Shown piece by piece: positions 3,117-54,900 of a DNA stretch of 64,000 bases. The stretch is from Patescibacteria group bacterium (lineage in GTDB: Bacteria > Patescibacteriota > Patescibacteriia > 2-02-FULL-49-11). The notes under the pieces are model-generated. The model ran no database searches, was not told the DNA's origin, and saw only the letters and a list, made by a program, of their open reading frames with translations. The DNA is taken from positions 636 to 64,635 of the forward strand of contig JBAZQN010000012.1 in NCBI GenBank assembly GCA_041645165.1, read 5' to 3'. The stretch's first letter is position 1; every line of letters begins with the position of its first letter. A program made the position numbers and the translations under genes.

Positions 3117-3203
3117 CAAACAACAATCCAAAACCCAAAATGTAAAAACCAAAATGATACGCCAAAATTTTCAATTTTACATTTTCATTTTGGAGTTTGG
3201 ATT

Positions 3204-6200
3204 TTGCATTTTGATTCTCTTATGATGTTTGAAGAACAACACCCCTCTACTGATTTTGACGCGATACGCCTGCGCCTCGCCAGCCCTGAGGTGATGAGGA
3301 AGTGGTCCTATGGAGAGGTGACGAAACCAGAAACCATCAACTACCGCACGCAGAAGCCGGAGAAGGATGGTTTGTTTGACGAGCGCATTTTCGGCCCCAC
3401 GAAAGATTGGGAGTGTTACTGCGGGAAGTACAAACGTATCCGCTACAAGGGCATCGTATGCGATAAGTGCGGCGTCGAGGTGACGCGCGCGGTCGTGCGC
3501 CGGGAGAGGATGGGTCATATAAACCTTGCCGCGCCCGTCACCCATATTTGGTTCTTACGGAGCGTCCCGTCCAATATCGGGCTCATGCTTGACCTCTCGG
3601 TGCAGGAGCTTGAGAAGGTAGTGTACTTTGCAAATTTCATCGTGCTCAAGGTGAATGAGGAGTTGAGGCAGGCAACCCTTCAGCAAGTCCAGGATGAGCA
3701 CAAGACGAGGAAGAAGGAGATTGAGCGGGAGTGGGAACAAACGCACAGCGCTCTCATGGCGGATAAAAACGCGAGCGGCGTCAGCGAGCGTGTGGTCCAG
3801 CTCCAGCGGCAAAAGGAAGAGCGTCTTAAGGAGCTGGAGAGCGCCGTAATACTTGCGCGTAAGGAAATCACCGAATTGAAACCGCTCATGACCATGTCGG
3901 AGTCGCAGTACCAGGATTTGGCGCTGAAGTACGGCCATGTATTTGAAGCGGGGATTGGCGCGGAAGCAGTCTACGAACTACTCAAGAGCATCGACCTTGC
4001 CGCGCTCGTGCGCGAGCTTGAGGATGAAGCGCATGAAGTGGTGGCGTCAAAACAGAAAAGGGTTTTAAAGCGGCTGAAGCTCACGAAAACATTTCTCCTC
4101 AATGGGATACGCCCGGAATGGCTGGTGCTTACCGTCGTGCCTGTAGTACCTCCTGATTTGCGTCCGATGGTGCAGCTTGATGGAGGGCGTTTCGCCGCGT
4201 CCGACTTGAATGACCTCTACCGCCGCGTCATCAACCGCAATAATCGCCTGAAGCGCCTACTGGAACTTAATGCGCCTGAGGTGATTACCAGGAATGAAAA
4301 ACGCATGTTGCAGGAAGCAGTGGACGCTTTGATTGACAACAGCGCGCGCCACGGCAAAACCGTCACCGCGTCCACCGGGCAGAAGAGGATGCTCAAATCC
4401 CTTGCCGATATTTTGAAGGGGAAACAAGGGCGTTTCCGCCAGAACCTGTTGGGGAAGCGCGTGGACTATTCCGGACGTTCGGTCATCGTGGTGGGGCCGC
4501 ATCTTTTACTCCACCAATGCGGGCTCCCTAAGAGAATGGCGCTCGAACTTTTCAAGCCGTTCGTGATTGCGAAGCTCATCGCGGGAGAATACGTCCATAA
4601 CGTGCGTTCTGCCAACCGGTTTATCGAATCCGGGCGGAGCGAAGTGTGGGATATTCTTGAAGAGGTGACGAAAAATTCCCACGTCTTGCTCAACCGCGCG
4701 CCCACCCTGCACCGGTTGGGAATCGAGGCGTTTCAGCCGATCCTTATTGAAGGGAAAGCAATTCAGGTCCACCCTCTGGTGTGCCCTCCTTTCAACGCGG
4801 ATTTCGACGGAGACCAGATGGCGGTGCATGTGCCGCTCACGGAAGAGGCAAAAAAAGAAGCGCGGGAGTTGATGCTCGCGTCCCGTAATATTTTAAAACC
4901 CGCGACAGGCGATCCCGTGATGGCTCCCCAGCAAGATCTCGTCTTGGGCTGTTTCTATCTTTCAACGTTTACGCGCGAGTCCTCTGAACTTCCCCAAACC
5001 GCATTAAAAAAGTTTTTCAATTCGGACGAGGCACTTACCGCATATGAAGTGGGCAGTATCCGTTTGCGCGAGCGGATACTGGTGCGCTACAGAGGCGCGC
5101 TCCTTGATACTTCAGTGGGCCGCATCATATTCAATGAGACGCTTCCCGAACAACTGCGGTTCGTGAACGAGGTGCTGGACAAGTCGAGATTGCGCTCACT
5201 TATCGCAAGGAACGTGGAGCACTTTGGCATTGAACCGACCGCACTGCTGTTAGACGAGATAAAGCGACTTTCTCTTGAGTATCTCACTATGTCAGGCATC
5301 TCTTGGGGCATGGATGACCTGCCGAAACTTCCTGAAAAAGATGCGATTGTTGCGAGCGCGGATAAGGAGGTGGATGAGGTGGAATCCATGTATGAACAAG
5401 GGTTACTTACTGATGACGAGCGCCATACCAAAGTGATTGAGATTTGGGCGCGGGTGAAAGATGAAGTGACGAAAATATCCAAAAAAAGCCTTGACCGCAA
5501 CGGTTCGGTCTATGCGATGATCGAGTCAGGCGCGCGCGGCAGCTGGGCGCAGATTACGCAAATGATGGGTATGAAAGGGAACGTGGCAAACCCCGCCGGT
5601 GATCTCATTGAATTGCCGGTCAAAGCAAGTTTCAAAGAAGGCCTTGAGGTGCTTGAATATTTCATATCCACCCACGGCGCGCGCAAAGGCTTGTCTGATA
5701 CCGCATTAAGGACTGCCAATGCGGGCTATCTGACGCGGCGCTTGATTGATGTGTCCCAGGATGTGGTTATCTTGGAGGAGGACTGTGGCGACACTGAAGG
5801 ACTTGCCATTACCAAGGAAGACAGCGAGGAGATGGGAGAGACTATTGCAGCGCGGGTACGGGGCAGGAAATTAGCTGCGGCGATAAAGGAACCCTCCACC
5901 AAGAAGGTGATTGCCAAAAAAGGGGAGACCGTGACTGATGAGCTTGCGCGGCAGATTGAATCTCTCAACTTGGACTTGGTGAAGATACGGTCCGCGCTCT
6001 CGTGCAAGACGCTTCGGGGTTTATGTGCCGCCTGTTATGGATGGGATTTGGGATACAATAAAGATGTTGCGAAGGGGACTGCCGTGGGTATTATCGCTGC
6101 GCAGTCCATAGGAGAGCCTGGCACCCAGCTCACTATGCGCACGTTCCATACGGGCGGTGTGGCCGGATCAGATATCACTCAAGGTCTCCCTCGTGTGGAG

Positions 6201-36216: not shown

Positions 36217-38013
36217 TTACTGCGCCTGTCCCCAAAAGACGAGCGTACCTTGCGATACGCCTGTTTCGTTCCCGCTGGGCACGGAGAGCGCAACCTCCAC
36301 CGTTTGAGTTGATTGCGCATTAAGCGATGTGTCAAAAGATCTCCATGAAGAGCCCGAAAGCCGCAGGTTGTCGACAAAGAGCTCGTCGCCGCGGACCGCG
36401 CTGGTGAATGAAAGAGGCGCGTCTCCAGTATTGCGCAGGAGGAGCGTGCGGTCTGCGGCCCTGCCTTGCGGTACATTGCCAAAGTCAAGAAGCGAAGGCT
36501 CGACCGTGAACCCTAGGGTTACGCCGTCCGCATTTCCGCCACCGGGCGCGGGAACCACATAAACCAATAAACCCACTGCGTTGCCATCTCCTATCGTGAG
36601 GGTGACCCGATTGGAACGGATTGCGCCGTCAGCCTCCGCCCAAATGGTCCACACGCCATCCGATAATGTAATAGTCGCCTCGCCTTGCGCGTCTGTCTGT
36701 ATTGGTTCAGTCCCCCCATAGAGCGTGGCGGCAATCGGACTCCAACTATTATTGCTGAATTGTTGAATTGTTATATTGGCAGATTGGCCGTTGATCGTGC
36801 GGGTGGTAGATGCTGAAAGGCGCAAGGGACTCCACTCGAATTCCCCATAATACCAGAGCACTTCATCTCCCGGCGCTAATGCATAGTCAGCGGCGCCACG
36901 GTCAGGGAGTGCCCAGTTGACGCGGTAGAGCCACCCCTTTGTCCCTTGCGCCGCATCGTTGTTGATCGTCTTTACATAAGGGCCGAACGAGGTTTGCGGG
37001 ATATCATAGGTGAAGCCGCACGCAGATGCGGCAGCGGGAATGATATCTAAGGCGCTGGCTAGTTGCGGAGCGAGCGCGGCGGTGCCGGTGCAGACTGGGT
37101 TTAACGATCCTTCTATGCGGTAGGACACGGTCGTGGCATGTTCTGGCACAAAGGAGGCGACCGGGAGGCTTTTGCCTGCGAGCGCGATCACGGCATATGC
37201 GGTTGAGATCGGCGTGAACGAGGTTTCATCGGTGAAGGTGGAGGAATGCGCAAAACTGCCATTCGGCTGCTGCAGCGCAAGGAGGTGGTCAAGCGCGTCT
37301 TTGCCATTCTTTTCCCATGCGGAGGAAGCGGGATCCTGGCCTGCTTTTCTCACTGCGTGCGCAACCCAGGCGGAGGACGATGTGTCGGAAGGATCCGGCT
37401 CACTGGTATAGGGATTGGCGGGCCAGAAGTAGGGGAATCCGCCGTCCTCATTTTGCGTGCCCTTCAGCCAGAGAAGCGCTCTTGAAATTGGCTCTTGGGA
37501 TGGGGCGACTCCCGCTTCTATAAGCGCCTGAATGGCCGCTGCGGTGGTGTTGGTATCGCCCCATGACCCGTTCTCCTGCTGTGCATTGAGGAGAGTTGTT
37601 TTTGCGTCTTGGATCGCCGGGTCGTCAGAGGCCTCTCCTGCCGCAGAAAGCGCAAGAATTCCGAAAATATCATCGTTGAGAAGCGCAGGGTCGCCGATTT
37701 GGCCGTTGGTGTGGAACGTGTTGAGCTTCGCGACCAAGTCGATCCCGGTAAAAGTGCGGGGATCGTATCCTGCCGCGACAATCGCGAGTATCGGCGCTTC
37801 CATCGTGATGGCAGAGCTGGTATCTGCCGTTTTTAGGTATTCGGCAGGGACTTCTGTGTCTCCTGCGGCTACAAGCGCCATGGTAGCCCAGGGGGCGGCG
37901 GGTTTGGATTTGAGATAGGTAATGGCGCGGGAGAGAGGGGCGTCTGCTTGCAATGAGAGTGACGGGATAAGGGATGAGGCGATGAGGAGCGCGGTTACGC
38001 ACCTCACTGTCAT
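36217..38013 (-). CDS. Secreted prenyltransferase/squalene-oxidase-repeat (alpha/alpha-toroid) protein with C-terminal beta-sandwich domains
   Basis: Signal MTVRCVTALLIASSLIPSLSLQA; repeated QxxxGxW-like motifs (QQENGSWGD, TQNEDGGFPY, LQQPNGSFAH); true start at 38013 inside the MITE A TIR (gggATGac); the track N-terminal 62 aa are MITE read-through. Confidence 0.7.
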   Translation of the reverse strand: MTVRCVTALLIASSLIPSLSLQADAPLSRAITYLKSKPAAPWATMALVAAGDTEVPAEYLKTADTSSAITMEAPILAIVAAGYDPRTFTGIDLVAKLNTFHTNGQIGDPALLNDDIFGILALSAAGEASDDPAIQDAKTTLLNAQQENGSWGDTNTTAAAIQALIEAGVAPSQEPISRALLWLKGTQNEDGGFPYFWPANPYTSEPDPSDTSSSAWVAHAVRKAGQDPASSAWEKNGKDALDHLLALQQPNGSFAHSSTFTDETSFTPISTAYAVIALAGKSLPVASFVPEHATTVSYRIEGSLNPVCTGTAALAPQLASALDIIPAAASACGFTYDIPQTSFGPYVKTINNDAAQGTKGWLYRVNWALPDRGAADYALAPGDEVLWYYGEFEWSPLRLSASTTRTINGQSANITIQQFSNNSWSPIAATLYGGTEPIQTDAQGEATITLSDGVWTIWAEADGAIRSNRVTLTIGDGNAVGLLVYVVPAPGGGNADGVTLGFTVEPSLLDFGNVPQGRAADRTLLLRNTGDAPLSFTSAVRGDELFVDNLRLSGSSWRSFDTSLNAQSTQTVEVALSVPSGNETGVSQGTLVFWGQAQ

Positions 38014-38131
38014 CCCCGACCAGAACCTGCCCCGTACCGAGATACGGGGTCGGGGATCCAGAAGGGAAAAATAGACAAAAATCGATTTGTTTTTGTTCGT
38101 TTGTCTGGATTCCTGCTTTCGCAGGAATGAC
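38009..38131. mobile_element. MITE-like element family A copy 3
   Basis: gtcatccccgaccagaacctgccccgtaccgagatacggggtcggggatccag...aaaatcgatttgtttttgtt...tctggattcctgctttcgcaggaatgac; supplies the start codon of 36217-38013. Confidence 0.7.
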
Positions 38132-38152
38132 ACCAGCTGTGTGCGCATATAA

Positions 38153-38378
38153 GAAATAAAAAAAATCCACTCGAGGGAGTGGATGGTCTTAAAGCGCAAA
38201 GCATAAAATTGCGCATAAGGACCATGGTATAACTCTGCTCGGAGTCATGTGAGGGGGTTACTTTACTCCAGCGACCGGGCTTGTCCCGCCAAAATTTTGC
38301 TCTGCAAAACTTAGGCGGGCGTTACCGTTGCGGCACAGCGGGGGAATGAAACCCCACTTCCCTGTGAGTAAAGAGTCT
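38153..38378 (-). ncRNA. Candidate small RNA (about 210 nt) on the minus strand, ending in a strong intrinsic terminator
   Basis: Minus-strand hairpin aucCACUCccucGAGUGgau followed by U8 (38153-38184); upstream 190 nt folds into a multi-stem structure (UCUUUACUC/GAGUAAAG closing stem; CACAG..CUGUG; GCCCGCC-UAAG-UUUUGC-AGA-GCAAAA-UUUU-GGCGGGAC); no plausible ORF. Confidence 0.4.
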
Positions 38379-38383
38379 TGTGA

Positions 38384-39199
38384 ATGAGCTTTTCAAGCTT
38401 ATATCGGTTTGAATGGCAGGGCAAGTGGATAACTAGGGATGCGTCTGATATAATGAAGAGAGAATATATTTCTTTTATCAACGTTATAATCATGAATATG
38501 CCGCAGCGCCTCGGTTCATCCTCACCTCGCCGCGTCGTGGTATTTGTGGGTGTTATTGCGCTCATCGGGGTATATGTAGGATACGCGGTGGTTTCTCGTA
38601 CGTTTAAAAATCAGACACGCCAGGGCGCTCCTGCACCATCTGCAACCATGACGCAAGAGCCTACCCCAGATGAGCTGGCAGCGCGGCAGAACGTATGGAC
38701 CAGCGATGATCCGGTACGGGGGAATATTAAAGCCCAGGTGTCCATTGTGGAATTTAGCGATTTCGAGTGCCCTTATTGCCGTGAGGAGTATCCTATAATA
38801 AAGCAGCTCCTCGATACGTATGGAGCCCAGGTCCGGTTCCAGTACCGCGATTTCCCTATTTCTGAACCACACCCCAATGCGCAGAGTGCGGCAGAGGCGG
38901 CAGAGTGCGCGAGCGCCCAGGGCAAGTTTTGGGAATATCATAATATATTATTTGAGCATCAAGACAGCCTTACGCGCGAAGACCTCGGAAGGTATGCGCG
39001 CGAGGTCGGGCTCAATCTCAAACTTTTCAATCAGTGCCTGGACGGCCGTTCTAAAACGAATGAGGTGATTGCGGACTTTAACGATGGGCGCGCGTTAGGA
39101 GTTGGTGGCACGCCGACTTTTTTTATAAACGGAGCAAAGTATGCGGGAGTGTTTACCTATGAAGAATTGAAGGGGATTGTTGAGGAGTTATTAAAGTGA
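38384..39199 (+). CDS. DsbA-family thiol:disulfide oxidoreductase (thioredoxin fold, CPYC), membrane-anchored
   Basis: Active site FECPYCREEYP; TM VVVFVGVIALIGVYVGYAVV; likely true start at Met 38492/38498 (MNMPQRL...). Confidence 0.8.
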   Translation: MSFSSLYRFEWQGKWITRDASDIMKREYISFINVIIMNMPQRLGSSSPRRVVVFVGVIALIGVYVGYAVVSRTFKNQTRQGAPAPSATMTQEPTPDELAARQNVWTSDDPVRGNIKAQVSIVEFSDFECPYCREEYPIIKQLLDTYGAQVRFQYRDFPISEPHPNAQSAAEAAECASAQGKFWEYHNILFEHQDSLTREDLGRYAREVGLNLKLFNQCLDGRSKTNEVIADFNDGRALGVGGTPTFFINGAKYAGVFTYEELKGIVEELLK

Positions 39200-39297
39200 T
39201 AAATTTTCAATTCTCAATTTTACAATTTTCACTAAATGATTCAATGATTCAATTTTCAAACATTGGGAAATTGAAAATCAACTGAAAATTGAACATT

Positions 39298-39373: not shown

Positions 39374-39901
39374 ATGGAAAAAACCCTAAAGACAATCATT
39401 ATCGGTGCTGACCATCGCGGGTGGCAGGCGAAGGAAGACCTTAAGCGTTCCATTGCAGAGTGGGGATATTTAATTGCTGATGAAGGGGCGCATGCGTATG
39501 ACGTGCATGATGATTATCCTGATATCGCCTATGCGGTGGCCTTGAGAGTCGCGCAGGAAGATGACATGCAGGGAGTGCTCCTGTGCGGATCCGGCGTGGG
39601 GATGTCAGTGGTTGCCAATAAAGTGCAAGGGATTCGCGCTTCCTTGTGCTTTTTTCCTGAACAAGCGGCAGCAGCCAAACACGATGATGATGCGAATGTG
39701 CTAGTGCTGTCCGTGGATTATCTGACCGCGGCACAGATGCGCCGCATTCTCAAGAGCTGGCTTGACACCGATTTTGCGCCGAAAGAGAAGTATATGCGGA
39801 GGTTGAGGAAGATTACTTTATTGGAGACACAAGGCTATCTGAAGAATGTCAAAGCTCAAAGTTCAAATGCCATGGTTCGACAGGCTCACCATGACAAATA
39901 A
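39374..39901 (+). CDS. rpiB: Ribose-5-phosphate isomerase B (RpiB/LacAB family)
   Basis: MEKTLKTIIIGADHRGWQAKEDL... CGSGVGMSVVANK; track ORF (TTG 39296) is read-through of repeat E. Confidence 0.88.
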   Translation: MEKTLKTIIIGADHRGWQAKEDLKRSIAEWGYLIADEGAHAYDVHDDYPDIAYAVALRVAQEDDMQGVLLCGSGVGMSVVANKVQGIRASLCFFPEQAAAAKHDDDANVLVLSVDYLTAAQMRRILKSWLDTDFAPKEKYMRRLRKITLLETQGYLKNVKAQSSNAMVRQAHHDK

Positions 39902-39990
39902 GACGTGTCATCCGAGAGCCTAAGTCGAAGGGTTGACACTCATTTGAGCTTTGAAATTTGTCATTGAGATTTTGAAATTCCTTTGAACTT

Positions 39991-40901: not shown

Positions 40902-41903
40902 ATGTTTGATGTCATCACCATCGGCGCGGCAACCCAGGATGTATTCTTGATGAGCAAGGGTTTTCACCTTATGCGATCTTCTCGCATGAAACGGATATGT
41001 GAGTGTTTCCCTCTGGGCGAAAAAATAAACGTAGAGCGCATTGATTTTGAAACCGGCGGCGGAGCAACAAACGCTGCGGCGACTTTCCGTAATTTGGGAT
41101 TCAGCGCGGGTGTCATTGCCAAAGTAGGGGATGACAGCGCAGGCGCGGCGGTAGTAAATGATTTGCGCGGGAGAGGATTAAAGACTGATTGGGTGCGTCA
41201 CGTGGCGGGGGGCACGACTGGGTTTGCGGCCATACTCCTTACTCCCCACGGCGATCGCACGGCGCTTGTCCATAGGGGCGTGTCCGCCTCGTTTTCCTCT
41301 GCAGATATTCCTTGGCAGAAGCTCAATGCGGCGTGGCTTGTGGTCACTTCGCTTGCGGGAAACATCGCATTGCTCAAGCGCCTTATCAACGCAGCGTGCG
41401 CGCGTGGGGTGCGGGTCGCGTTCAATCCGGGCATGGGAGAATTGCGTTATGGTCTCGAAGTCCTTCGTAAGCATTGCAGCGCCGCGCATGTGCTGCTGCT
41501 CAATCGCGGAGAAGCGAACATGCTCGCCTCGCTGAAGTTCTGGCGAAGCGGGCTCGCGCCAGGCGCGCGTGATATCCGTGCGCTCCGGCGCCGTTTATCT
41601 GCCCGTTTTCAAAATGCCGTCGTGGTCACTGAGGGAGCGCGGGGCGCGTATTATTGGGATCAACGCCAGTTCTTATGGGCGCAGAGCAAAAAAGTGAAGG
41701 TGGTGAATTCTACGGGCGCGGGCGATGCATTTGGCGCCGGATTTATTTCTGGTATACTGCGCTGGCGTGACCCTGCGCGGGCGCTGCAACTGGCGACACT
41801 CAATGCGCTCGGCACGATACAACAGATGGGCGCTAAAAAAGGGTTGCTTACTAAATGGCCTACGCAAGCTATACTGGATGGAATTAAGATAACGTCATTA
41901 TAG
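40902..41903 (+). CDS. PfkB-family carbohydrate kinase (ribokinase-like)
   Basis: N-terminal DVITIGAATQDVF, GGGATNAA, C-terminal GAGDAFGAGFISG anion hole motif. Confidence 0.85.
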   Translation: MFDVITIGAATQDVFLMSKGFHLMRSSRMKRICECFPLGEKINVERIDFETGGGATNAAATFRNLGFSAGVIAKVGDDSAGAAVVNDLRGRGLKTDWVRHVAGGTTGFAAILLTPHGDRTALVHRGVSASFSSADIPWQKLNAAWLVVTSLAGNIALLKRLINAACARGVRVAFNPGMGELRYGLEVLRKHCSAAHVLLLNRGEANMLASLKFWRSGLAPGARDIRALRRRLSARFQNAVVVTEGARGAYYWDQRQFLWAQSKKVKVVNSTGAGDAFGAGFISGILRWRDPARALQLATLNALGTIQQMGAKKGLLTKWPTQAILDGIKITSL

Positions 41904-42032
41904 AATATTCAATTTTTCAATTCTCAATTTTACAATTTTCACTCAATGATTCAATGATCCAATTTTCAAACATTGAAAAATTGAAAATTAATTGAAAATT
42001 GAACATTGAAAATTGGAAATTATTAATAAATT

Positions 42033-42668
42033 ATGAATACACAAAAGGAACAAAAGAAGAATATTGGTTGGCTCAAGTATACGATATGCGTTTCAGGCGC
42101 TGCGGGCGGTCCCGTGGTGACGCAAGCGGCGATGGATAAAGCAAAAGAAATAGGCCGTGAGATCGTGCGGCACGGGTGTGTGCTCGTGACGGGCGCCACC
42201 ACCGGCATCCCCTATGCGGCTGCGCAGGGAGCAAAAGAGTTGGGTGGCATTTCCATAGGCCTGTCCCCCGCCTCCTCCGAGCGGGACCATATACGCCATT
42301 ACCACCTGCCGACCAAGTACTTTGATTTGATCATTTATACAGGATTCGATTATTCAGGAAGGAACCTCCTGCTCACCCGTGCTTCGGATGCGGTGATCGT
42401 CATTAATGGAAGGATAGGGACGCTCAACGAGTTTACCATTGCCTTTGAAGATCGGAAACCCATCGGGGTGCTTATCGAGAGCGGCGGTTCTGCTGATTTG
42501 ATAAAAGGGATTGTGAAGGCGGCGCAGAAAGGCGCGGGGAAAATTATCTATCACAACGAGCCGAAGGTATTGGTGGAAAAAGTGCTTGCACTGGTCAGGA
42601 AAGAAAAATTAATGAAGCCTCCTCTAAGCGAATACTTTTTGAACCACCATTATCATGGAAATGAATAG
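42033..42668 (+). CDS. LOG-family/TIGR00725 Rossmann-fold nucleotide-binding protein
   Basis: CVSGAAGGP...VVTGATTGIPYAAAQGA...GRIGTLNEF pattern of the SLOG/LOG superfamily; 211 aa. Confidence 0.7.
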   Translation: MNTQKEQKKNIGWLKYTICVSGAAGGPVVTQAAMDKAKEIGREIVRHGCVLVTGATTGIPYAAAQGAKELGGISIGLSPASSERDHIRHYHLPTKYFDLIIYTGFDYSGRNLLLTRASDAVIVINGRIGTLNEFTIAFEDRKPIGVLIESGGSADLIKGIVKAAQKGAGKIIYHNEPKVLVEKVLALVRKEKLMKPPLSEYFLNHHYHGNE

Positions 42669-42771
42669 GATGGGAAATCCCAATGACAAATTTCAAATGT
42701 CAAATGAATATCAAAGCTCAAAATCCAAATTTGACATTGGGGTTTTGAATTTTATTTGAACTTTGAACTTT

Positions 42772-42828
42772 GTCCCGCACTTTGAATTATTTTATCTAAG
42801 GTATGCGGGATCCCGCCTGAGCGGTGAG
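42772..42828. repeat. Repeat family E module (identical to 39991-40047)
   Basis: 85-bp exact duplicate. Confidence 0.75.
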
Positions 42829-42864: not shown

Positions 42865-43827
42865 TTGTTATTTTTTATGAAGAGTCGAAATAAATATGAT
42901 TTGATAATTGTCGGTGGTGGTGCCGCAGGATATGCCGCGGCGCTCTACGCGAAACGGTATGAACTTTCTGTGTTGTTGATAGAAGGAGAAACTCCCGGAG
43001 GAGAAACCGCAAATGCGGGATTAATTGAAAATTATCCCGGTTTTGATGCGATTGACGGGTATGAGCTCTATCAGAAATTCCGCAGCCATGCGCTCAAGTT
43101 CGGCGCTGAAATCCAATCGGGCAGGGTTGAGAAAGTGACACAAGAAGGCCATCAGTTCAAAGTGTCCGTAGGGGGACAAGGCGAGAAGGAAGGCTTATGC
43201 ATTATATTCGCCCATGGTCAGGCGCGCAGGAGATTGGGGCTTCCAAGCGAAGATCGCTTAACCGGCAAAGGGGTATCTTACTGCGTCACCTGCGACGGGC
43301 CATTGTACAAAGGGAAGACCGTGGGGATTGTGGGAGGGGGCGATGCGTCGGTGAAAGGAGTAAATCTGCTTACTGAATTCGTTCATAAAGTTTTCTTAAT
43401 TGTTATGCTGGGGCAAGTGAACGCAGAACCTATTAATTTTCGGCTCATGCAAAGCAAGGGTGACAAGGTTGAAGTGTTATACCATACGCAAGTAAAAGAG
43501 TTATTAGAAGAGAGCGGAAAATTCGCGGGAGTGAAGCTCTCACCGGGTTATCAAGGAAATGACATCCTTAAGCTTGATGGGTTGTTTATAGAAATCGGCG
43601 CAGTGCCGGATCGGGCGCTTCCCGCATCTCTGGGGGTGGCGCTCGCCGAGAGCGGGCATATTCACGTGGACCAATTCATGCGGACGAACATCGCGGGTAT
43701 TTTTGCCGCAGGGGACGTGACGGACGCCACGGGATCATTCCGCCAGATCGTCACCGCGGCCGCGCAAGGGTCCATCGCGGCGACCAGCGCGTATGAGTAT
43801 CTGAAAATCCTAAATCCGAAATCCTAA
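42865..43827 (+). CDS. trxB: Thioredoxin-disulfide reductase (NAD(P)H, FAD)
   Basis: YDLIIVGGGAAGYAAALYA FAD motif, redox CVTCDG, NADPH GIVGGGD, C-terminal FAAGDV; probable start ATG 42877. Confidence 0.9.
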   Translation: MLFFMKSRNKYDLIIVGGGAAGYAAALYAKRYELSVLLIEGETPGGETANAGLIENYPGFDAIDGYELYQKFRSHALKFGAEIQSGRVEKVTQEGHQFKVSVGGQGEKEGLCIIFAHGQARRRLGLPSEDRLTGKGVSYCVTCDGPLYKGKTVGIVGGGDASVKGVNLLTEFVHKVFLIVMLGQVNAEPINFRLMQSKGDKVEVLYHTQVKELLEESGKFAGVKLSPGYQGNDILKLDGLFIEIGAVPDRALPASLGVALAESGHIHVDQFMRTNIAGIFAAGDVTDATGSFRQIVTAAAQGSIAATSAYEYLKILNPKS

Positions 43828-43911
43828 ACAAACTCAAAGCACAAAATTCAAAGGTGAAACAGTTTTGTATTTCGGATTTGTTTAGAGTTTAGTGTTTAGT
43901 ATTTAGAGTTT

Positions 43912-44055
43912 ATGCTATTAAGCGACCTCTGCGAATGCGGCTCTGGTTTAGTCTATGGCGCGTGCCATGGTTCCATGGAGCCGTGCGACTGCGGATCCGG
44001 CGATCCTGCGGGCAGCTGTTGTTATGACGTTGACAATGGCGAGGAGGAAGAATAA
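43912..44055 (+). CDS. Cys-rich 47-aa ORF MLLSDLCECGSGLVYGACHGSMEPCDCGSGDPAGSCCYDVDNGEEEE between trxB and tlpA
   Basis: Uninterrupted ATG-TAA frame (below the track cutoff), 7 Cys in CxC...C...CxC...CC spacing, acidic tail; genome-typical GC. Confidence 0.4.
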   Translation: MLLSDLCECGSGLVYGACHGSMEPCDCGSGDPAGSCCYDVDNGEEEE

Positions 44056-44089
44056 CAAAAAAGCAAAATGCAAAACTCAAAATTATGGA

Positions 44090-44106
44090 GTCCCGCAAAG
44101 CGGGAC
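44090..44106. repeat. Repeat family E minimal hairpin gtcccgc-aaa-gcgggac within the 95-bp module upstream of tlpA
   Basis: Module near-identical to 23095-23190. Confidence 0.65.
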
Positions 44107-44160
44107 AGAATTCTTTCATTTTGATTTTTGGTCTTTGATTTTTGCATTTCACACAAAGGT

Positions 44161-44805: not shown

Positions 44806-44974
44806 GGGGAAATTCTAAACTCTCTCGTTACGCGAGATCTGGCGTAGCCAGATAAATTCTAAATACTAAACAAATCCAAAATCCAAATTACCGAAATTCA
44901 AAACGATTTTGGGCATTTGGGTTTTGAGCTTGGAATTTATTTAGGATTTAGGGCTTCGGATTTAGAGCTTCTCA

Positions 44975-46656: not shown

Positions 46657-46731
46657 GGGCCGGTGGTGTAGCCTGGTTTGCACACCTCCCTGTCACGGAG
46701 GTAGTCGCGGGTTCAAATCCCGTCCGGCCCG
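46657..46731 (+). tRNA. tRNA-Asp (anticodon GTC)
   Basis: GGGCCGG/CCGGCCC acceptor stem, anticodon arm CCUCC-CUGUCAC-GGAGG, T-arm GUUCAAAUC, discriminator G, no encoded CCA. Confidence 0.9.
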
Positions 46732-47717: not shown

Positions 47718-48383
47718 ATGGCAGAAGAAGCGGAAAAACAGACAAACGCCGGGCCGATCACGGTCAGCAAGGATGTGCTCGACATCGTGATCAACGAGGC
47801 CATTCGGCCACTTGCGCGGCATCTGGTGATGTCCCTGCCAGATGATGTATTAAAGGATCGTGCAAGATTGTGGTCGATGGCTACTCCGGCGCTCGCGTTT
47901 GCGGTGGCGCGGGCATTGCCGGACAAGGGGGTCTGGAAGACGGTGGACATTTTCCAGAAGGAATTTTTCTCCGAGGTCGGGCAGGCGTTGCGCGACCGTG
48001 CGTCCGGCATGCTTAAAGAAATTGCCACGCACGAACCGAAGATTGCGCACTTGCCGAAGGCCGAGGCGGTTTCTTTTGGATTGGTGTTTACGACCCTCGG
48101 CAGGACATCGCAAGGCGTGGCAGTACTTAAGAGGATCGGATCTTACGGAGGGGACGGCCTTGCATTGTACGCGCATTTTGCTGGCATCCCGGCGGCCCAG
48201 CTTGAACAGCAATTGAGAGGGTTGAAGCCAGAGGCGGTAGACGCCCTAATGCTTACCTTCAAGAAGCCGGAAAAACAACCCAGCGCCCCGATCTTGCCAA
48301 AGATGACAGCTAAACTCGACGGCTGGAAGAGTCGGGCGCGGCAGGCAGCTGACAAATACAATAAAAAGAAAGGATGGTGGTAA
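47718..48383 (+). CDS. Hypothetical protein (221 aa), first gene of the plus-strand hypothetical cluster
   Basis: No recognizable domain; 3-bp gap to the next gene. Confidence 0.5.
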   Translation: MAEEAEKQTNAGPITVSKDVLDIVINEAIRPLARHLVMSLPDDVLKDRARLWSMATPALAFAVARALPDKGVWKTVDIFQKEFFSEVGQALRDRASGMLKEIATHEPKIAHLPKAEAVSFGLVFTTLGRTSQGVAVLKRIGSYGGDGLALYAHFAGIPAAQLEQQLRGLKPEAVDALMLTFKKPEKQPSAPILPKMTAKLDGWKSRARQAADKYNKKKGWW

Positions 48384-48386
48384 GTC

Positions 48387-49628
48387 ATGGAGTTCCTCGA
48401 GCTATTTCATTCCTGGCTGGCCTACCAAGGTCGGCGGATCCAATGGACGGTCAGGTTTCTCGGTGCCACCGTCCTTATCACGGCAGTCCTTATCTCCTGG
48501 GGATTGTTTGTGCAAATGAGCATTGGGCTCATCATCGTAGGCGTACTGTTTTCGTTTGTGGGGTTCGTGCTGTTTGGGATACTCCGCCATTTGATTTTAT
48601 TGGTATTAGCTGAGGCGGCTGGGGAATTGGTGACGAAGACCCGCGAAGCGATTCAGACGTATTTGAAATTCATGGGGGTGGTGGTATTGAGCGAGGCGAT
48701 CGGGCTGAATTATCTGGGGCTCGTTTTTATCTTCGGGACACCGGATAAGATTATCTTCGGTCTGATTTCGCTCGCAGTCCTGATCCTGCTTTTGGGCGGC
48801 GGGATCAAGGGGGAGAAATTTATTCCCACCGTCACCGGACTCGCCTGGGTCGAGTTCGGTCTCGCAACCACATACCTCATCGCGCCGGAGGAGTTAAGGG
48901 CTCTCTTCGGGGAATTGAGACAGCTTCCATTTTTGGGGAATCTTGCATTGGTTGCTCTTGGTTACCTTGTGGTAAGCAAGGTCGCTAGGAAGAGAACTGG
49001 GCAGAGTGCTTCGGGTTTAACCACCGCCACCGTCAGCTCAACTACAACGCCAGCTTCGGGGTACGGTAGTGGTGCCAGCAAGAGCAAGGGGAGCGGGCTG
49101 TTCGGCTTCCTCATTTTTCTCCTTGTTCTTGGGGCGGCTGTCGGTGGCATTCTCTTCTTCACGCTTCCCAAGGAGAAACTGACGCCGGAGTATCGGGCGG
49201 AGGTTTTCGGGGCAGTGAAGGGAGAGGTCGGGAAGGTAACCAGCGAAGTCAAATCTCGCTTGGATACTTTCCGCGGCCCGCAAGCGCAAGCCGCACCCGC
49301 ACCCAAGCCAGCAGCCGCGGCGCCTATGAAGCTCTCCGTCGATCTTTCCGGTGCACGCGTTCTTGTGTATCGGGAGAGTGATGGAAGTGCACAGGGCCAG
49401 TTCATCGGTCCGGTGCTTGCGACGGCTATGACTGGCACGATCTCTCGGGACGCGGGAGGACCCGAGACGATTAGTGTGGCGCTGTGCTTTTCGCGACACG
49501 ATAGTGTCCTTGCTGTCGCCTCCCATCCGTTCAAGGAGAACGAAAGCTACACCTTCAAGTCCTCTGGAGTGCCCTACGTGTGGGCGCCGAAGGGGACGAA
49601 GGGAAAAGTCAATTTGGTTCTAAATTAA
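48387..49628 (+). CDS. Hypothetical polytopic membrane protein (413 aa; 6 TM, Thr/Ser-rich linker, C-terminal soluble domain)
   Basis: TM helices read directly; no known domain. Confidence 0.55.
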   Translation: MEFLELFHSWLAYQGRRIQWTVRFLGATVLITAVLISWGLFVQMSIGLIIVGVLFSFVGFVLFGILRHLILLVLAEAAGELVTKTREAIQTYLKFMGVVVLSEAIGLNYLGLVFIFGTPDKIIFGLISLAVLILLLGGGIKGEKFIPTVTGLAWVEFGLATTYLIAPEELRALFGELRQLPFLGNLALVALGYLVVSKVARKRTGQSASGLTTATVSSTTTPASGYGSGASKSKGSGLFGFLIFLLVLGAAVGGILFFTLPKEKLTPEYRAEVFGAVKGEVGKVTSEVKSRLDTFRGPQAQAAPAPKPAAAAPMKLSVDLSGARVLVYRESDGSAQGQFIGPVLATAMTGTISRDAGGPETISVALCFSRHDSVLAVASHPFKENESYTFKSSGVPYVWAPKGTKGKVNLVLN

Positions 49629-49742: not shown

Positions 49743-50069
49743 ATGCTTACCTCTGCGATTCAGCAGTTTGTAGCCCAGCTCATGACGGATGCCGGGCTCG
49801 ATGCCCTTGCGCCAGAGTTCAAAGAGGATTATGCTGAACAGCTTGCTGCACAAGTAGAACGTCGCATTGGGATAAAAGCCGTGGGGATGCTTGATTTCAA
49901 AGGTAAGCAAGAATACCTCAAATTTATCGAAAAATTCGAAAATAAAGTGCCAAATCCCGAGGAGGCGCATAAATTTTTCCAGCAGCATGTGACGGATTTT
50001 GACACGAAAATGCAGACCGTACTCGACGATTTTTCAAAAGAATTCTTATCATCTATTAAGAAAGATTAA
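49743..50069 (+). CDS. Small helical protein (108 aa), paralog of 51660-51992
   Basis: About 35% identity to the 51660 protein over the core; precedes the large paralog by 11 nt. Confidence 0.6.
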   Translation: MLTSAIQQFVAQLMTDAGLDALAPEFKEDYAEQLAAQVERRIGIKAVGMLDFKGKQEYLKFIEKFENKVPNPEEAHKFFQQHVTDFDTKMQTVLDDFSKEFLSSIKKD

Positions 50070-50079
50070 TATTGTTTAT

Positions 50080-51636
50080 ATGTCTGAACATCCACAGCAA
50101 CGACAGGAGGCAGAGGGAGGAATACATCAATTCATTGACACGAGCGGAGCGACTATCGGACCTACTGTTGATCAGAATTTTAACGGCGCGCATATCGGTC
50201 CCCATACCGAAGAGAATTTTAGCGGCGCGCGCATTGGCGGCATGCACGCAGAACACGTCGATGGCGGTATCAATGTCACTATCGGCTCGCCACGAGATGT
50301 AACGGCAGAAAAAGAGAAGACAGCTGCGCGTGAGGAGACGACCACAAAGAAGGCTGCAACTCATGAGGAAAAGCCAGCGAGCGAAGAAAAGGGTAAGGGG
50401 ACAAATCAGGAAGCAAAGGAGCAAAAAGATGTAACGTATAAACTTACCCAGGGTGAATTTGATATGTTAGTATTGGCGACAAAGGTGAAATTACGCAGGA
50501 AAGAAGTTACACCAGAAGAATTGGGAAAAGTATTAGAGCAGGCGGTAAAGGATGTGATTGGCGTTGCCGCAAAGGAGAAACGGGCAAGAAAAGACGTAAA
50601 GGTTTATTCTCTCGAAGACTTCAAGACGGCACTTGGCATAGGTAAAAAGAAAGAAGAAGAACCAAAGGAGGAATATGCACTGACTGATGCTGAATTGGCA
50701 AGTGCGGTGCGGAGGCTGAAAAAAGCATTTCCTCTTGAGGGAAACAAAGAGCCGCCTGATGAAGGTATTATGTTTATAGTGAAAGACGAAATGTTGAAAC
50801 GCGGCGAAAAGGCTGAAACACCGAAAGACGCAAAGGTCTTGACAATCGCGCAGATCAGGGATGCATATAAGAGACCAGAGAAGAAGGAACAGAAAGAAGA
50901 AGCGTCCTTTCAGATGACTCCTTTTGAGTTTAAATATGTAGTCAAACGGCTTTTGGAATGGAAAGTGACGGCGGACAAACTTTCTGTGATAGATGTACAG
51001 AGAATTAAGCTTGACCCCGCCAGGAGAAGAGGGGGGGAACAGCCGCGTACGTACACCTTGGATGATATAAGGAAGGCTTTAGGATCCGAAGGGGCGGGCG
51101 GTCAGACAGACAAGAGTGCGAGGAAAGATGATAAAGATGGCAATGCACCACCACCTGAGAAGGAAGCGCCTGACGGTGGATACCAGTATAGTAAGGCTGA
51201 AATGGCGTCTGTTGTGAAATCACTTGCTGACCAGATGATTGATCCCCAGAATTTAACGGCTGAAGATATTCGCGCAATATCATATCCTGTTGAGGAACAT
51301 GCAGAGCGGGGTGCGGTTACTTTGGAGGATCTAAAACAGGCCTTGGCTGAAGAGTTGGGGAAGAGGGCGGGAGGAGAACATGAGGGTTTTAAGCCAAAAA
51401 CCAAGGAGGAGCTTGAGGCGATTGCCCCCGAGCCTTATAAGGTTACTTATAACGGAGCTACCTATGATATCCGACAGGTAATGGATAATGCTGATAAGCT
51501 TGCGCGAGTGAGGGATGCGTTTGGCATTGAAGGGAAAGAGAGAACTTCTACACAGAAGGGGATTGTGGGTGATTTAGCGATAGCGTTAGATATAGCAATT
51601 AGAAATGGACTCCAGCCAATCGAGGAAAAGAAGTAA
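50080..51636 (+). CDS. Large K/E-rich hypothetical protein (519 aa) with conserved Gly/His-rich N-terminal domain and internal LEDxKxALG repeats
   Basis: N-terminal GIHQFIDTSGATIGPTVDQNFNGAHIGPHTEENFSGARIGGMHAEHVDGGINV shared with the 51996 protein; track start 49999 overlaps the upstream gene and ATG 50080 follows its stop. Confidence 0.6.
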   Translation: MSEHPQQRQEAEGGIHQFIDTSGATIGPTVDQNFNGAHIGPHTEENFSGARIGGMHAEHVDGGINVTIGSPRDVTAEKEKTAAREETTTKKAATHEEKPASEEKGKGTNQEAKEQKDVTYKLTQGEFDMLVLATKVKLRRKEVTPEELGKVLEQAVKDVIGVAAKEKRARKDVKVYSLEDFKTALGIGKKKEEEPKEEYALTDAELASAVRRLKKAFPLEGNKEPPDEGIMFIVKDEMLKRGEKAETPKDAKVLTIAQIRDAYKRPEKKEQKEEASFQMTPFEFKYVVKRLLEWKVTADKLSVIDVQRIKLDPARRRGGEQPRTYTLDDIRKALGSEGAGGQTDKSARKDDKDGNAPPPEKEAPDGGYQYSKAEMASVVKSLADQMIDPQNLTAEDIRAISYPVEEHAERGAVTLEDLKQALAEELGKRAGGEHEGFKPKTKEELEAIAPEPYKVTYNGATYDIRQVMDNADKLARVRDAFGIEGKERTSTQKGIVGDLAIALDIAIRNGLQPIEEKK

Positions 51637-51995: not shown

Positions 51996-54900
51996 ATGGA
52001 AGATCCCAAAGAACAAAGTACATCCACTCATACCGAGCTCACGCGCGAGCGCGGAGTGACCAGCGAGGAGCGTGCAAAGCACGTACTGCTTGAAAAAGAG
52101 CTCACTGCGTTGATGCGCAAACGTAAAAAAGGCGAAGCGCCGTCACCTGATGAAAAAAGGCTTATCGGCGACGTCCTCGCGCACCCTTATCGGATCGAGC
52201 AGGTAACCGTGTTCCTGTATGGGCCGCGAAGTACAAAAATATCTCCTGAAATTAAAGCAAAGTTACTTGAATTCTGCACATTAAGAGATAGGATCGAGTT
52301 AGGGAGTCATGGTGCAGGGGGATCTATAATAATTAATCAGAACGTTGAAGGAGTTCATCAAACCATTGATAATAGCGGCGCTCAAATAGGACCTCAAGTA
52401 AAGCAAGACTTTACCGGTGCACATATTGGACCTCATGTGGAAGAGGATTTTACCGGTGCACGTGTTGGCGGCATGCATGCGGATAATGTACAGGGCGGCA
52501 TAACGGTTGACGTTGCGGGAGGGGTGGCATCTGTTCCTGTGGCGCCTCCCTCGCATGAAGAACCACGGAGGGAGAGACCAGAGGAAGAGGAGGAAGCTGA
52601 ACAAGAACCAGAAGAAGAAGAAGAAGAAGTTGAAGAGGAGCCAGAAGAGGAGGAAGCTGAGTTAGTACCAGAGGAAGAAGTTGAAGAGGAAGAGGAACTA
52701 GAGCCGGAGAGAGAATGGAATCTCCTACGCAGGCTGAATACGGCAAAACGGGAGGAGGCACTGCGTCAGGGGGTGGAGGGACCGAAGACCGAGGAAGACA
52801 TTGAGATTGATTTGGAAAAAGTAAAATACGCAGAACGTGATGAGGTGGCAGATGACCAAGAGCTCAATGAGAAGATCCAGGAGCTTTTAGAAGCTATGGC
52901 AAAGGCTGAGGATGTGCTTGAGGGTGTGAAACCGGAGACCTTGCAGTTTATCAACGAGCGGACGGGACTTCCTGAAGATCAGGTTTTAGAAATAGCCAAA
53001 CAACAGCTAACGCGTTTGCAAGAGGAAGCCGAGAAAAATGTGAAGGGCAAGAAGAGCAAATCAGGCTGGTTTAAGACGCTCGCAAAAAATATCCTTCCCT
53101 ATGCCGCTTTTGCGAGCTTGGGTTTTTTTGCGCTACTTCCCGGTTCGCTTGCCGCGCTCACGTTTGCGGCGTACCGCGGCGGGCAGATGCTCTATAAGAA
53201 GCATAAGGAGAAGAAGGCGATTACCGAAGAGACAGAACGCATACAGGGCCAGTTGGTCGTAAACGGTTCTCAAGAACAGCGGCAATATAAGGAGCAGTAT
53301 AACGCATCCATTGCCACGGCCAAGCAGGAGCAGATCGACGGAGAGTCAGTGGAAAAGAGGATGCTTGATACTGATGCAGCGCGGGATGCGCATCTTAATA
53401 CATGGAGAGCAGAAGAGTTGTGGAGCAAATCAGCGGCAGATCAAGAAAGCGCCCGACAGGAATATTTGGATGAACTTACTAATACCAGGGAAGCGTATGA
53501 ACAAAGGATTCTCACGTATTTGGAAAACCACGAATACTGGAGAGAGCGTCCCGAAGAAGAGCGTGTGCTCTACGCCAAGGCGTGCAGTGATTTATATGAG
53601 CGAAATGAACGGGAGTCATTGAGCGAGGCGGAGCTGCAGGCGGAATTTGTAAAGGTAGATGAGGGAAAGATTACGAAGTTCCTACGGCGCAAGCGGCACG
53701 AGCTCGAAGAAGTAAAGTTCTTCAAGGGGCTTTCTGAAAAGATGAAGGATAAGGTAAATACCGGCCTCATCTTTATTGCCGCTCGGCAAGTGGCGCATGC
53801 CAGCAGCGTTCTGGGACCTGCGATGGATTTCTGGGGCGGCATGCGGCTCGGCGGCGCATTGGGGGATTTGATGCTGCGAAAGAAATATGGCGAACTCCAG
53901 GATGTGACGGTAGATGATCTCACGCGGTGCCAGTCGCTCTCAAGACTCACTCCTGATCAACGAAGCAAAGCTAACTTACCGGACGATGCCCAGCTTACAG
54001 AATGGAAGAAAGCGCTCTATGATAAGGCGCAGCGGCAGATATTGAATACAGATTTCAGGCTCAAACATCCCACGGAATATGCACAGTTAAAGGAGTATCT
54101 CCACGGAGAAGCGCTGAAAGACATGTCCACCCGTTATCTCATGCGACTGGAACAGATGAACAGTGATGACGAGCAAGTCATGGCGCTCTCTTTAGGTCTT
54201 GCGGTCAGTGAGGAACAGAAAGTGAGCCGCACCCAGGAAGCTGCTGTTACGGGAGGGGCACGAGAGGCGCAGGCACGGAAGGAAAAGATAGAAAAGGAAG
54301 TGCAGTGGAAGAGGGTAGCCTATAAGATGGGCGGTGCATTGATTACCTCGGTGGTTGGTGAAGTGGTGTCTAAAGAGATTCAGGAGGCGGTGGAGGCGAA
54401 GGTTGCCGCAGGGGAAGTATCGGAAGGTGCATTGGCAGTCGCGGCACGGGTGACGACTTGGTTTGAAGAGTTGCAGCGGGGCGCGCAGGGCGAGCGGTGG
54501 TGGGAAAAACTCCCGCCTGAGTGGGCAGGGGAGAAGGTCAATTTGCTCGGCGTCGAAATGACGAAATTAGAATGGCTGAGGAAGTTCGTGCCAGAATTCG
54601 AAATAGCCACTGAACATTTACCGCCCGTTGAGTTTGATGATGGAGGGGGCGAGGGGGCATTGCCCGCACCAGGTTCTGCCGGGGAAGAACATGTACCAGG
54701 AGAATTTGAGGATGGTGGAGATAAAGGAGGGGGAGAAGCGATAGTTCCGCCACCAGTCGAAACCGTTCCCTTGCCGGCCCATATTGGATATCAAGGCGGT
54801 GGGGACTTGTGGCATGAGCTTATCAAGCAAGCTAATGTCCGTGCTGACTTCACCCAACTTGTGGGCCATCAAATTCCGGAATCAAGCTTGCAACTTTCCG

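Follow-up and report, generated by a model that had tools for sequence, protein, structure and literature searches.

A 47-residue protein encoded between a thioredoxin reductase (TrxR) gene and a redoxin gene is most probably a tandem of two SecA-like MBDs, predicted to hold two metal ions and followed by a disordered acidic tail. The gene lies in a 64,000-nucleotide stretch of DNA (the window) from a Patescibacteria group bacterium. We put the probability of this reading of the molecule, which combines sequence comparison with a structure prediction, at roughly 0.8. By analogy with SEC-C domains elsewhere, its most likely role would be in docking or regulation. The domain is already known and is recognised by annotation pipelines; the stand-alone tandem architecture is uncharacterised. 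The features of the gene and its surroundings are listed in Table 1.

Table 1. Features of the mini-gene and its flanks in the window (strand: +, forward;., not stranded).
Feature	Position	Strand	Evidence
47-aa tandem SEC-C mini-protein CDS	43912..44055 (including stop)	+	ORF list, Pfam, NCBI identity, dN/dS
Motif 1, CXCX8CH, C7-E-C9-G-S11-G-L-V-Y15-G-A-C18-H19	43930..43968	+	SecA peptide alignment, family conservation
Motif 2, CXCX8CC, C25-D-C27-G-S29-G-D-P-A33-G-S-C36-C37	43984..44022	+	family conservation
Acidic C-terminal tail YDVDNGEEEE, predicted disordered, lineage-specific	44023..44052	+	pLDDT, orthologue indels
TrxR-type low-Mr flavoprotein, CVTC active site, without HRRxxxR	42877..43827	+	Pfam, PDB, orthologues, E. 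coli TrxB
TlpA-like redoxin, WCSFC motif, hydrophobic N-terminal segment	44161..44805	+	Pfam Redoxin and AhpC-TSA
AT-rich spacer, imperfect 42-nt-arm inverted repeat I3	43801..43904	.	inverted-repeat scan
AT-rich hairpin spacer, terminator-like; inverted repeats I8, I14 and I16	44055..44149	.	site scan, RNA fold

The translation of the ORF is exactly MLLSDLCECGSGLVYGACHGSMEPCDCGSGDPAGSCCYDVDNGEEEE, and the seven-cysteine reading frame reported by the first-pass annotation therefore exists as it had been written. The protein contains seven Cys, one His, 11 Asp or Glu and no Lys or Arg (pI ∼4.05, 4.8 kDa), and it has no hydrophobic or signal-like segment. The start ATG is the first after an in-frame TAG five codons 5', and the orthologues begin at the same ATG. 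The description of the ORF as unannotated was mistaken, as an identical protein, MFA4873306.1 (from a 65,473-bp contig), is already present at NCBI under the title 'MAG: SEC-C metal-binding domain-containing protein [Patescibacteria group bacterium]'.

The ORF is a real protein-coding gene under purifying selection, because its base composition, its Pfam match, its substitution pattern, its in-frame indel and the unalignable spacers around it all agree. It forms an island of 56% GC between spacers of 29% and 34% GC, and its GC3 of 0.58 compares with 0.54–0.62 in the adjoining genes. Orthologues of 47–50 aa were found at the same position in 14 related loci (L001–L014), one of which (L013) carries the label Candidatus Uhrbacteria. 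When the DNA of these loci was aligned with the window, the ORF was almost invariant and both flanking spacers were unalignable. The Nei–Gojobori method, applied to codons 1–38 of diverged pairs, gave a dN/dS of ∼0.07 (range 0.04–0.11), with a dN of ∼0.07–0.12 and a dS of ∼1–1.7, at which synonymous sites are near saturation. The mini-genes of the window and of L001 differ at 4, 2 and 17 sites in codon positions 1, 2 and 3, respectively. Conservation of the frame in relatives had been proposed in the first-pass annotation as the check on its ORF; the frame is kept, synonymous drift is abundant, and the sole indel within the ORF in the alignment of the orthologues is in frame.

A chance ORF, or a structured non-coding RNA in the intergenic region, might be suspected since short ORFs are common and since the RNA of the mini-ORF is a little more stably folded than its shuffled versions (z = -2.1). 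However, the changes between orthologues fall at third codon positions, the dN/dS is low, and the region has a protein-domain match, while Rfam returned no RNA family over the ORF (a tRNA-Asp was its only match in the window). This explanation is already refuted by the codon-level comparison and has practically no probability left. A split gene or read-through from trxB was also rejected. The two genes are in the same frame (43912 - 42865 = 1047 = 3 x 349), the spacer has in-frame stops (TGA at 43855–43857, in addition to the TAG before the ATG), and no trxB-mini fusion was found among the relatives compared.

Judged by its primary sequence, the mini-protein belongs to the SEC-C/SecA-like MBD domain family. 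The Pfam model SEC-C (PF02810) matched it in two stretches with 26.9 bits against a gathering cut-off of 20.4 (E = 4.5e-6), and no other Pfam family matched at E ≤ 1. A precomputed PF02810 label is carried by P0001 and most homologues. Three features define a SecA-like MBD (10.1101/613315): the ligand pattern CXCX8C[H/C], a Ser that hardly ever varies (Ser-889 in SecA) and a conserved aromatic position (Tyr-893 in SecA). Motif 1 has the ligand pattern, the Ser and the aromatic residue (a Tyr); motif 2 has the ligand pattern and the Ser, with Ala33 at the aromatic position. The Ser equivalent to SecA Ser-889, two residues past the second Cys, is S11 in the first motif and S29 in the second. Two metal ions with four predicted ligands each would account for all seven Cys and for His19. 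The CxC/CxC/CC arrangement described by the first-pass annotation is thus a real cysteine pattern, which reads simply as two SEC-C motifs once His19 is counted, and metal binding, one of the properties that it had thought plausible, is the best-founded of those predicted here, the seven Cys and His19 forming two CXCX8C[H/C] motifs.

A PDB search with the orthologue profile returned three matches only, all of them C-terminal zinc-binding peptides of SecA (1ozb, 1tm6 and 1sx0), and motif 1 aligned with the SecA zinc peptide as NeLCqCGsGLvyGaChGs against NEPCPCGSGKKYKHCHGS. In the close orthologue P0003 His19 is replaced by Cys, a swap that is consistent with the choice between C and H in CXCX8C[H/C] (10.1101/613315). 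The acidic tail differs in length and sequence among the orthologues via in-frame indels, and a subfamily of 39 aa is without it.

The structure of the mini-protein was predicted by AlphaFold2 with the family alignment as input. The model had a mean pLDDT of 89, with ∼95 for residues 1–40 and a mean of 53 for residues 41–47. It predicts with confidence a 40-residue core made of two knuckles, while the acidic tail is probably disordered. Superposition on the SecA MBD 1ozb_I gave an rmsd of 0.7 Å over 21 columns and superposition on the YchJ structure 9l6b, one of three structural matches, an rmsd of 0.5 Å over 19 columns. The SecA MBD and YchJ were the only structures matched, with E-values that are non-significant because the domain is tiny (∼20 residues). 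No solved structure of a stand-alone MBD-MBD protein was found in the PDB by sequence and structure searches.

An exhaustive HMMER profile scan of 1.84 billion cluster representatives (E ≤ 0.001) returned 44 proteins, mostly of 39–100 aa, and most of them follow the pattern CxCGSG-x5-C[CH]G-x3/4-CxCGSG-xxAGxCC[YF]. A word-index search gave 178 matches, among which the mini-proteins were the strongest and the weaker ones graded into YchJ (SEC-C, PF17775, SEC-C). Among the proteins retrieved by the profile and word-index searches combined, the tandem module is present in 88 proteins of ≤110 aa. No source gives the mini-proteins a name other than 'SEC-C (metal-binding) domain-containing protein' or 'hypothetical'. 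NCBIfam holds no model for the stand-alone MBD-MBD architecture and gave sub-threshold matches only, and a full-text literature search found no paper on tandem SEC-C mini-proteins.

In an alignment of 36 sequences (A4), C7, C9, G16, C18, C25, C27 and S29 were invariant and G10, S11, C36 and C37 almost invariant. Counts per position were made on the 87 of the 88 mini-proteins that were parsed by a stricter pattern. The fourth ligand (position 19) is Cys in 76 and His in 11 of these, and nothing else. The conserved Ser occurs in 85 of the 87 first motifs and in all 87 second motifs, and the linker between the motifs is five residues long in 73/87. The aromatic position of motif 1 is occupied by Tyr or Phe in 61/87, and its equivalent in motif 2 by Ala or Val in 81/87. 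Because the pI of the family spans 4.05–9.03, the acidity and the tail can be regarded as traits of the lineage and not of the family; from the same spread, the interaction surface is predicted not to be conserved across the family.

Named hosts within the Patescibacteria included Uhrbacteria, Buchananbacteria, Parcubacteria, Staskawiczbacteria, Liptonbacteria and others; outside them they included Deltaproteobacteria, Clostridia, Sulfobacillus and Aminicenantes MAGs. Two larger proteins carry related arrangements. P0036, an exonuclease-like protein with an RNase_H_2 domain, carries the same module, with its five-residue linker, at its C-terminus, and P0045 is a C-terminal fragment of SecA with two SEC-C motifs.

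The C-terminal MBD of SecA (PF02810; 1ozb, 1tm6, 1sx0/1sx1) has its ligand pattern and Ser repeated in both halves of the mini-protein and its Tyr in motif 1, while in motif 2 the aromatic position is taken by Ala. In SecA the domain is a tail on an ATPase, whereas the mini-protein is a free-standing tandem duplicate, and the basic residues with which the SecA domain binds SecB have no counterpart in the mini-protein, so that the SecB surface is missing. The mini-protein was rejected as a SecA: it is 47 aa long, SEC-C is its only match, and the DEAD-motor, preprotein cross-linking and wing/scaffold domains are absent. YchJ (UPF0225), in which two SEC-C motifs flank the NTF2-like domain PF17775, is likewise a small cytoplasmic protein with two SEC-C motifs, and YchJ proteins were the next-best matches of the family profile. 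YchJ copurifies with iron (10.1101/613315) and, in Salmonella, a regulatory function that depends on ROS sensing has been reported for it (PMC13377102). Its middle domain (∼120 residues) is missing from the mini-protein, where the motifs are only five residues apart, and the mini-protein also lacks the basic DNA-binding patch of YchJ. Identification as a YchJ was rejected because PF17775 gave no match and the NCBIfam models scored ∼8–9 bits against cut-offs of 140–158.

YecA/AscA, which has been reported as a chaperone (preprint), combines a UPF0149 domain with a C-terminal SecA-like MBD, and an iron-binding SecA-like MBD is what the mini-protein would have in common with it. YecA/AscA carries a single MBD on a larger domain, and the mini-protein has no such domain. 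Rubredoxins and the small zinc-ribbon and zinc-knuckle micro-proteins resemble the mini-protein in size (40–60 aa), in their frequent acidity and in having mononuclear Cys4-type sites. In rubredoxins and zinc ribbons, paired CxxC motifs form one site; the mini-protein, in contrast, has CxC plus C[CH] and two predicted sites. With this CxC...C[CH] geometry, and with SEC-C as the only Pfam match at E ≤ 1 (no rubredoxin or zinc ribbon), the protein was accepted neither as a metallothionein nor as a rubredoxin.

The two neighbours named by the first-pass annotation, a TrxR and a TlpA thiol-disulfide oxidoreductase, were confirmed by Pfam. The upstream flavoprotein matched Pyr_redox_2 at 5.5e-37, and its best solved relatives are all TrxRs, the first being Sulfolobus TrxB-3 (8.5e-67). 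Its segment LIVMLGQVNAEP aligns with LIHRRDTFKAQP of 3f8p; in the enzyme VMLGQVN replaces HRRxxxR, and GGGDAS replaces GxGxxA. HRRxxxR is also missing from the orthologues of this TrxR, and its loss is seen again in the comparison with E. coli TrxB. By the published criterion, the enzyme would be classed as non-NTR. The downstream protein has a thioredoxin fold (Redoxin/AhpC-TSA), for which a WASWC motif was found as a line of evidence. Its start was placed at the ATG at 44161, where conservation among the orthologues begins. A hydrophobic stretch read from its translation, FLGAAALLLVSGGVLFLYF, suggests that the redoxin is membrane-anchored, with its domain outside the cytoplasm. Because of this apparent anchoring, and because the mini-protein has no hydrophobic or signal-like segment, the mini-protein is unlikely to be a direct partner or substrate of the redoxin. 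By Pfam, the neighbours in the window are PfkB, SLOG, TrxR, redoxin, Lgt and a LAGLIDADG protein, and no SecA gene adjacent to the mini-gene was present among the scanned neighbours.

The spacing had been called exact and operon-like, a description that does not hold: gaps of 84 nt (TrxR to mini-gene) and 105 nt (mini-gene to redoxin) separate the genes, and both gaps are hairpin-forming, as are the spacers around every other gene here. The RNA fold of the 5' spacer is not exceptional (z = -1.5), and no promoter-like site was found before the mini-gene in the window. In L001, a promoter-like site (10/12) lies just 5' of the mini-gene. The 3' spacer folds at -26.7 kcal/mol (z = -3.3) and contains a terminator-like site, a GC stem-loop (44090–44106) followed by a T-rich tract. 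This candidate terminator, which would separate the mini-gene from the redoxin gene, looked likely in the window, but a simple scan found none after the mini-gene in three relatives. The transcription signals around the mini-gene are ambiguous, and the operon argument was therefore left unused.

Related loci were searched with a 9-sequence alignment as the seed. In L001–L014 the order is PfkB, SLOG, TrxR, mini-gene, redoxin and Lgt, as far as the contigs reach. The TrxR-mini-redoxin order is confined to these Uhrbacteria-like close relatives, and, because the genomes are so close (TrxR ∼90% identical), the Uhrbacteria-type loci were treated as one observation. The 39-aa subfamily shows another arrangement: of its 12 species-representative loci, 10 have the string MetRS, CvpA, TatD and, as its last gene, the mini-gene. 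The gap between tatD and the mini-gene is 4–14 nt in nine of these loci and 97 nt in the tenth, and the genes 3' of it vary. No TrxR or redoxin homologue was present within 5 kb of the metG-cvpA-tatD-type mini-genes, and homologues of metG, cvpA and tatD were absent from the window and from the Uhrbacteria loci examined.

In the P0055 subfamily (L031) the mini-gene is convergent with a TrxR-like gene, whose product is 33% identical to that of the window and keeps HRSxxxR. Genes of the SQHop_cyclase_C/DUF4430 type lie nearby, as they do in the window (36217–38199), and because the two loci share these genes the TrxR adjacency of this subfamily suggests a leftover gene order and not an independent event. 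Three loci of the Deltaproteobacteria/Aminicenantes type contain, in this order, a Crp-family regulator, VTT or DsrE, the mini-gene and SoxA/TsdA cytochrome c, multihaem cytochrome or DUF302 genes. Other mini-genes were found adjoining MarR, between CsrA and UvrC, near a ribonucleotide reductase and, in the vicinity of a CCA-adding enzyme, flanked by DUF5671 and a hypothetical gene. The family thus occupies at least five distinct neighbourhoods, from which no single partner can be inferred. Redox and sulfur genes recur as context, but genes of translation and nucleic-acid metabolism do so too. It is possible that the mini-gene is linked to the adjoining redox genes, in a way that would be lineage-specific at most. 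The redox connection drawn by the first-pass annotation keeps the adjacency in close relatives and loses its generality, since most Patescibacteria loci are of the metG-cvpA-tatD type.

The mini-protein would be a cytoplasmic protein of 4.8 kDa that consists of two back-to-back SEC-C motifs and an acidic tail only. Each CXCX8C[H/C], aided by its conserved Ser, may wrap one metal ion, through C7/C9/C18/H19 in the first motif and C25/C27/C36/C37 in the second, and the fixed five-residue linker would pack both knuckles into a rigid core of ∼40 residues. The metal would be Zn2+, or Fe as in the reports on SecA, YecA and YchJ; that each motif holds one Zn2+ or Fe is inferred from homology only. SecA-like MBDs take up either Fe or Zn, and it is through its MBD that SecA docks to SecB and to ribosomes (10.1101/613315). 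The MBD of SecA prefers iron, a preference to which the conserved Ser adds, and iron copurifies with YecA and YchJ (10.1101/613315). In Salmonella YchJ, the cysteines of the C-terminal SEC-C form a reversible ROS-sensing disulfide switch (PMC13377102). By comparison with these proteins, the mini-protein may act in trans as a metal-dependent docking or regulatory module, the metal-thiolate centres of which could sense metal supply or oxidation. Its partner might be encoded nearby and would then belong to the thioredoxin system in this lineage; for most of the remaining Patescibacteria, the candidates would be TatD or proteins related to translation. The SecA docking mode is not simply transferable to the mini-protein and the partner must differ, because the basic residues that bind SecB are absent: GSGKKYK of SecA aligns to GSGLVYG, and the protein has 0 Lys/Arg and 11 Asp/Glu. 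Such a basic, SecB-docking surface characterises the C-terminal MBDs of SecA, YecA and YchJ and does not define the Pfam family.

More specific roles were weighed against the genomic contexts. If the protein served the thioredoxin system as a client or as a switch, its Zn- or Fe-thiolates would be oxidised under stress, the metal would be released and the disulfides formed would be re-reduced via TrxR and thioredoxin; the position of the gene after trxB would reflect this role. The mini-gene adjoins trxB in all Uhrbacteria-type loci, the P0055 subfamily also lies beside a TrxR-like gene in a different, convergent arrangement, the members outside the Patescibacteria sit among Crp-family regulator, DsrE, SoxA/TsdA cytochrome c, multihaem cytochrome and DUF302 genes, and the ROS-sensing disulfide of YchJ is made by SEC-C cysteines (PMC13377102). 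The close kinship of the Uhrbacteria loci, however, reduces them to a single observation, the adjacency in L031 may be leftover gene order, in 10 of the 12 other species loci metG-cvpA-tatD stands there instead and neither a TrxR nor a redoxin homologue lies within 5 kb, and the transcription signals are ambiguous; we regard this role as rather unlikely. A doubtful candidate, too, is a docking adaptor that acts in trans on a nucleic-acid enzyme or the ribosome, as a free form of the appendage of SecA, YecA and some methionine aminopeptidases (MetAPs), with TatD or translation factors as partners. It would account for the MetRS-CvpA-TatD-mini order in 10 species loci, with its short gaps in nine and variable genes 3', and for P0036, in which an identical tandem module and linker are fused to a 3'-5' exonuclease-like domain (RNase_H_2). 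MBDs are known to bind ribosomes, and some MetAPs carry one (10.1101/613315). Yet the metG-cvpA-tatD context is missing from the lineage of the window, the peptide encoded in the window is devoid of basic residues, and the fusion is a single example. The pair metG-tatD is a widespread housekeeping pair, and a mini-gene that follows it may be a passenger.

A metallothionein-like buffer or metallochaperone, which holds or hands over Zn or Fe, seems improbable. It would fit the eight ligand residues within a 40-residue core, and SecA-like MBDs swap Zn within minutes and prefer Fe (10.1101/613315), but SEC-C is the only Pfam family at E ≤ 1, homology and the AlphaFold2 model point to two mononuclear structural sites and not to a cluster, and no metal transporter or regulator recurred in the sampled contexts. 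Still less probable is that, in the Uhrbacteria lineage, an Fe-binding, rubredoxin-like mini-protein is the redox partner (donor or acceptor) of the adjoining TrxR. The TrxR is without HRRxxxR and has GGGDAS for GxGxxA, the trxB-mini order is maintained in that lineage, and the peptide is strongly acidic, as ferredoxins and rubredoxins are. Against this, the adjacency is phylogenetically shallow, and we know of no redox activity of any known SEC-C site. Such a pairing, if real, would amount to a thioredoxin system of a new kind, independent of pyridine nucleotides and with a SecA-like iron site as its basis. The suggestion of the first-pass annotation that the peptide could be a RiPP-like precursor, with post-translationally cross-linked cysteines, took account of its small size, its many cysteines and its acidic tail, and can be given very little credence. 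No radical-SAM, YcaO, lanthipeptide, cyclase, protease or exporter gene, and thus no modification enzyme, was present among the scanned neighbours, the cysteine pattern is that of a known folded, metal-binding domain, the cysteine core is the conserved part and not a hypervariable one, and the contexts are housekeeping ones that differ between lineages and extend over several phyla. A docking or regulatory role of the tandem SEC-C mini-protein, of the kind that SEC-C domains have elsewhere, is the reading that we prefer.

To our knowledge, SEC-C motifs have been studied almost solely as appendages of SecA, YecA and YchJ. The present analysis delimits a family of proteins of ∼40 residues that are two SEC-C motifs and nothing else. 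For annotation, a candidate Cys-rich or RiPP peptide gives way to a domain label that can already be found at NCBI. A separate, minor lead, on what may power thiol reduction in these organisms, is the neighbouring TrxR, which is devoid of NADPH motifs. Tandem mini-proteins occur commonly in Patescibacteria, whose genomes are small, and the operon positions of their genes, after tatD or trxB, are conserved; the mini-proteins may be about the smallest natural system in which it can be asked what a lone SecA-like metal site does.

The thioredoxin reductase (TrxR) encoded upstream of the mini-gene was aligned to known TrxRs, and the criterion for non-NTR enzymes was taken from PMC10880999. The HRRxxxR NADPH-binding motif was absent from the window TrxR. 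The stretch LIVMLGQVNAEP was found as the counterpart of LIHRRDTFKAQP in Sulfolobus TrxB-3, at the position occupied in E. coli TrxB by HLIHRRDGFRAEK. The GxGxxA of NTRs was replaced by GGGDAS, and the CVTC active site was retained. The orthologues likewise had no HRRxxxR and carried VMLGQVN or VKLEQVN there. Judged by its sequence, the window TrxR is a non-NTR under this criterion.

Features of the window around and downstream of the mini-gene
Feature	Position	Strand	Basis
Inverted-repeat spacers, first four	39197-39297, 39840-39965, 41895-42018, 42664-42774		composition and inverted repeats
Inverted-repeat spacers, last three	43801-43922, 44055-44149, 44851-44973		composition and inverted repeats
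TrxR	42877-43827	+	alignment to Sulfolobus TrxB-3 and E. coli TrxB
Prolipoprotein diacylglyceryl transferase (Lgt), 315 aa	44975-45922	+	Pfam
LAGLIDADG_3 homing-endonuclease-like ORF, 242 aa	45928-46656	+	Pfam
tRNA-Asp(GTC)	46657-46731	+	
ORF, 221 aa, no Pfam family	47718-48383	+	Pfam scan
ORF, 413 aa, no Pfam family	48387-49628	+	Pfam scan
ORF, 545 aa, no Pfam family	49999-51636	+	Pfam scan
ORF, 1625 aa, no Pfam family	51996-56873	+	Pfam scan

All intergenic spacers between 39197 and 44973 had a GC content of ~30%, compared to ~55% in the genes, and each consisted of a single long, imperfect inverted repeat whose left arm was rich in A (CAAAT/TCAAA units) and whose right arm was rich in T. 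The strongest RNA fold was located at 44806-44950 (z = -6.35). This spacer style was common to the relatives; the spacer sequence was not conserved. The hairpins around each gene could be terminator, RNA-stability or processing elements. At the related locus L001, ~300 additional bases (~2880-3290) separated the mini-gene from the redoxin gene, and these were absent from the window and from the related locus L003.

The window Lgt matched the Pfam model in two stretches and had 315 aa for a profile of 240 positions, which implies that its central part carries an insertion. The LAGLIDADG_3 ORF started 6 nt past lgt, and the tRNA gene began directly at its end. As the loci of relatives had different genes after lgt (in L003 and L004 a 141-aa minus-strand gene), this ORF looks like a lineage-specific insertion. 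Further downstream, a Pfam scan (E ≤ 1e-5) of four consecutive ORFs found no family.

The records of three loci encoding the 39-aa mini-protein subfamily (L020, L021 and L023) were titled 'uncultured Gammaproteobacteria'. These taxonomic labels may be wrong, as L020 and L021 also contained the MetRS-CvpA-TatD-mini string of Parcubacteria and Buchananbacteria loci and L023 shared only a near-identical mini-protein. In P0036, a metagenomic protein of 276 aa, an RNase_H_2-superfamily 3'-5' exonuclease-like domain was joined to the tandem SEC-C module of the mini-protein, with the 5-residue linker of the module also kept. This nuclease-SEC-C fusion resembles the TatD-mini adjacency of the Parcubacteria-type loci, and it is a possible Rosetta-stone lead tying the tandem SEC-C module to nucleases.
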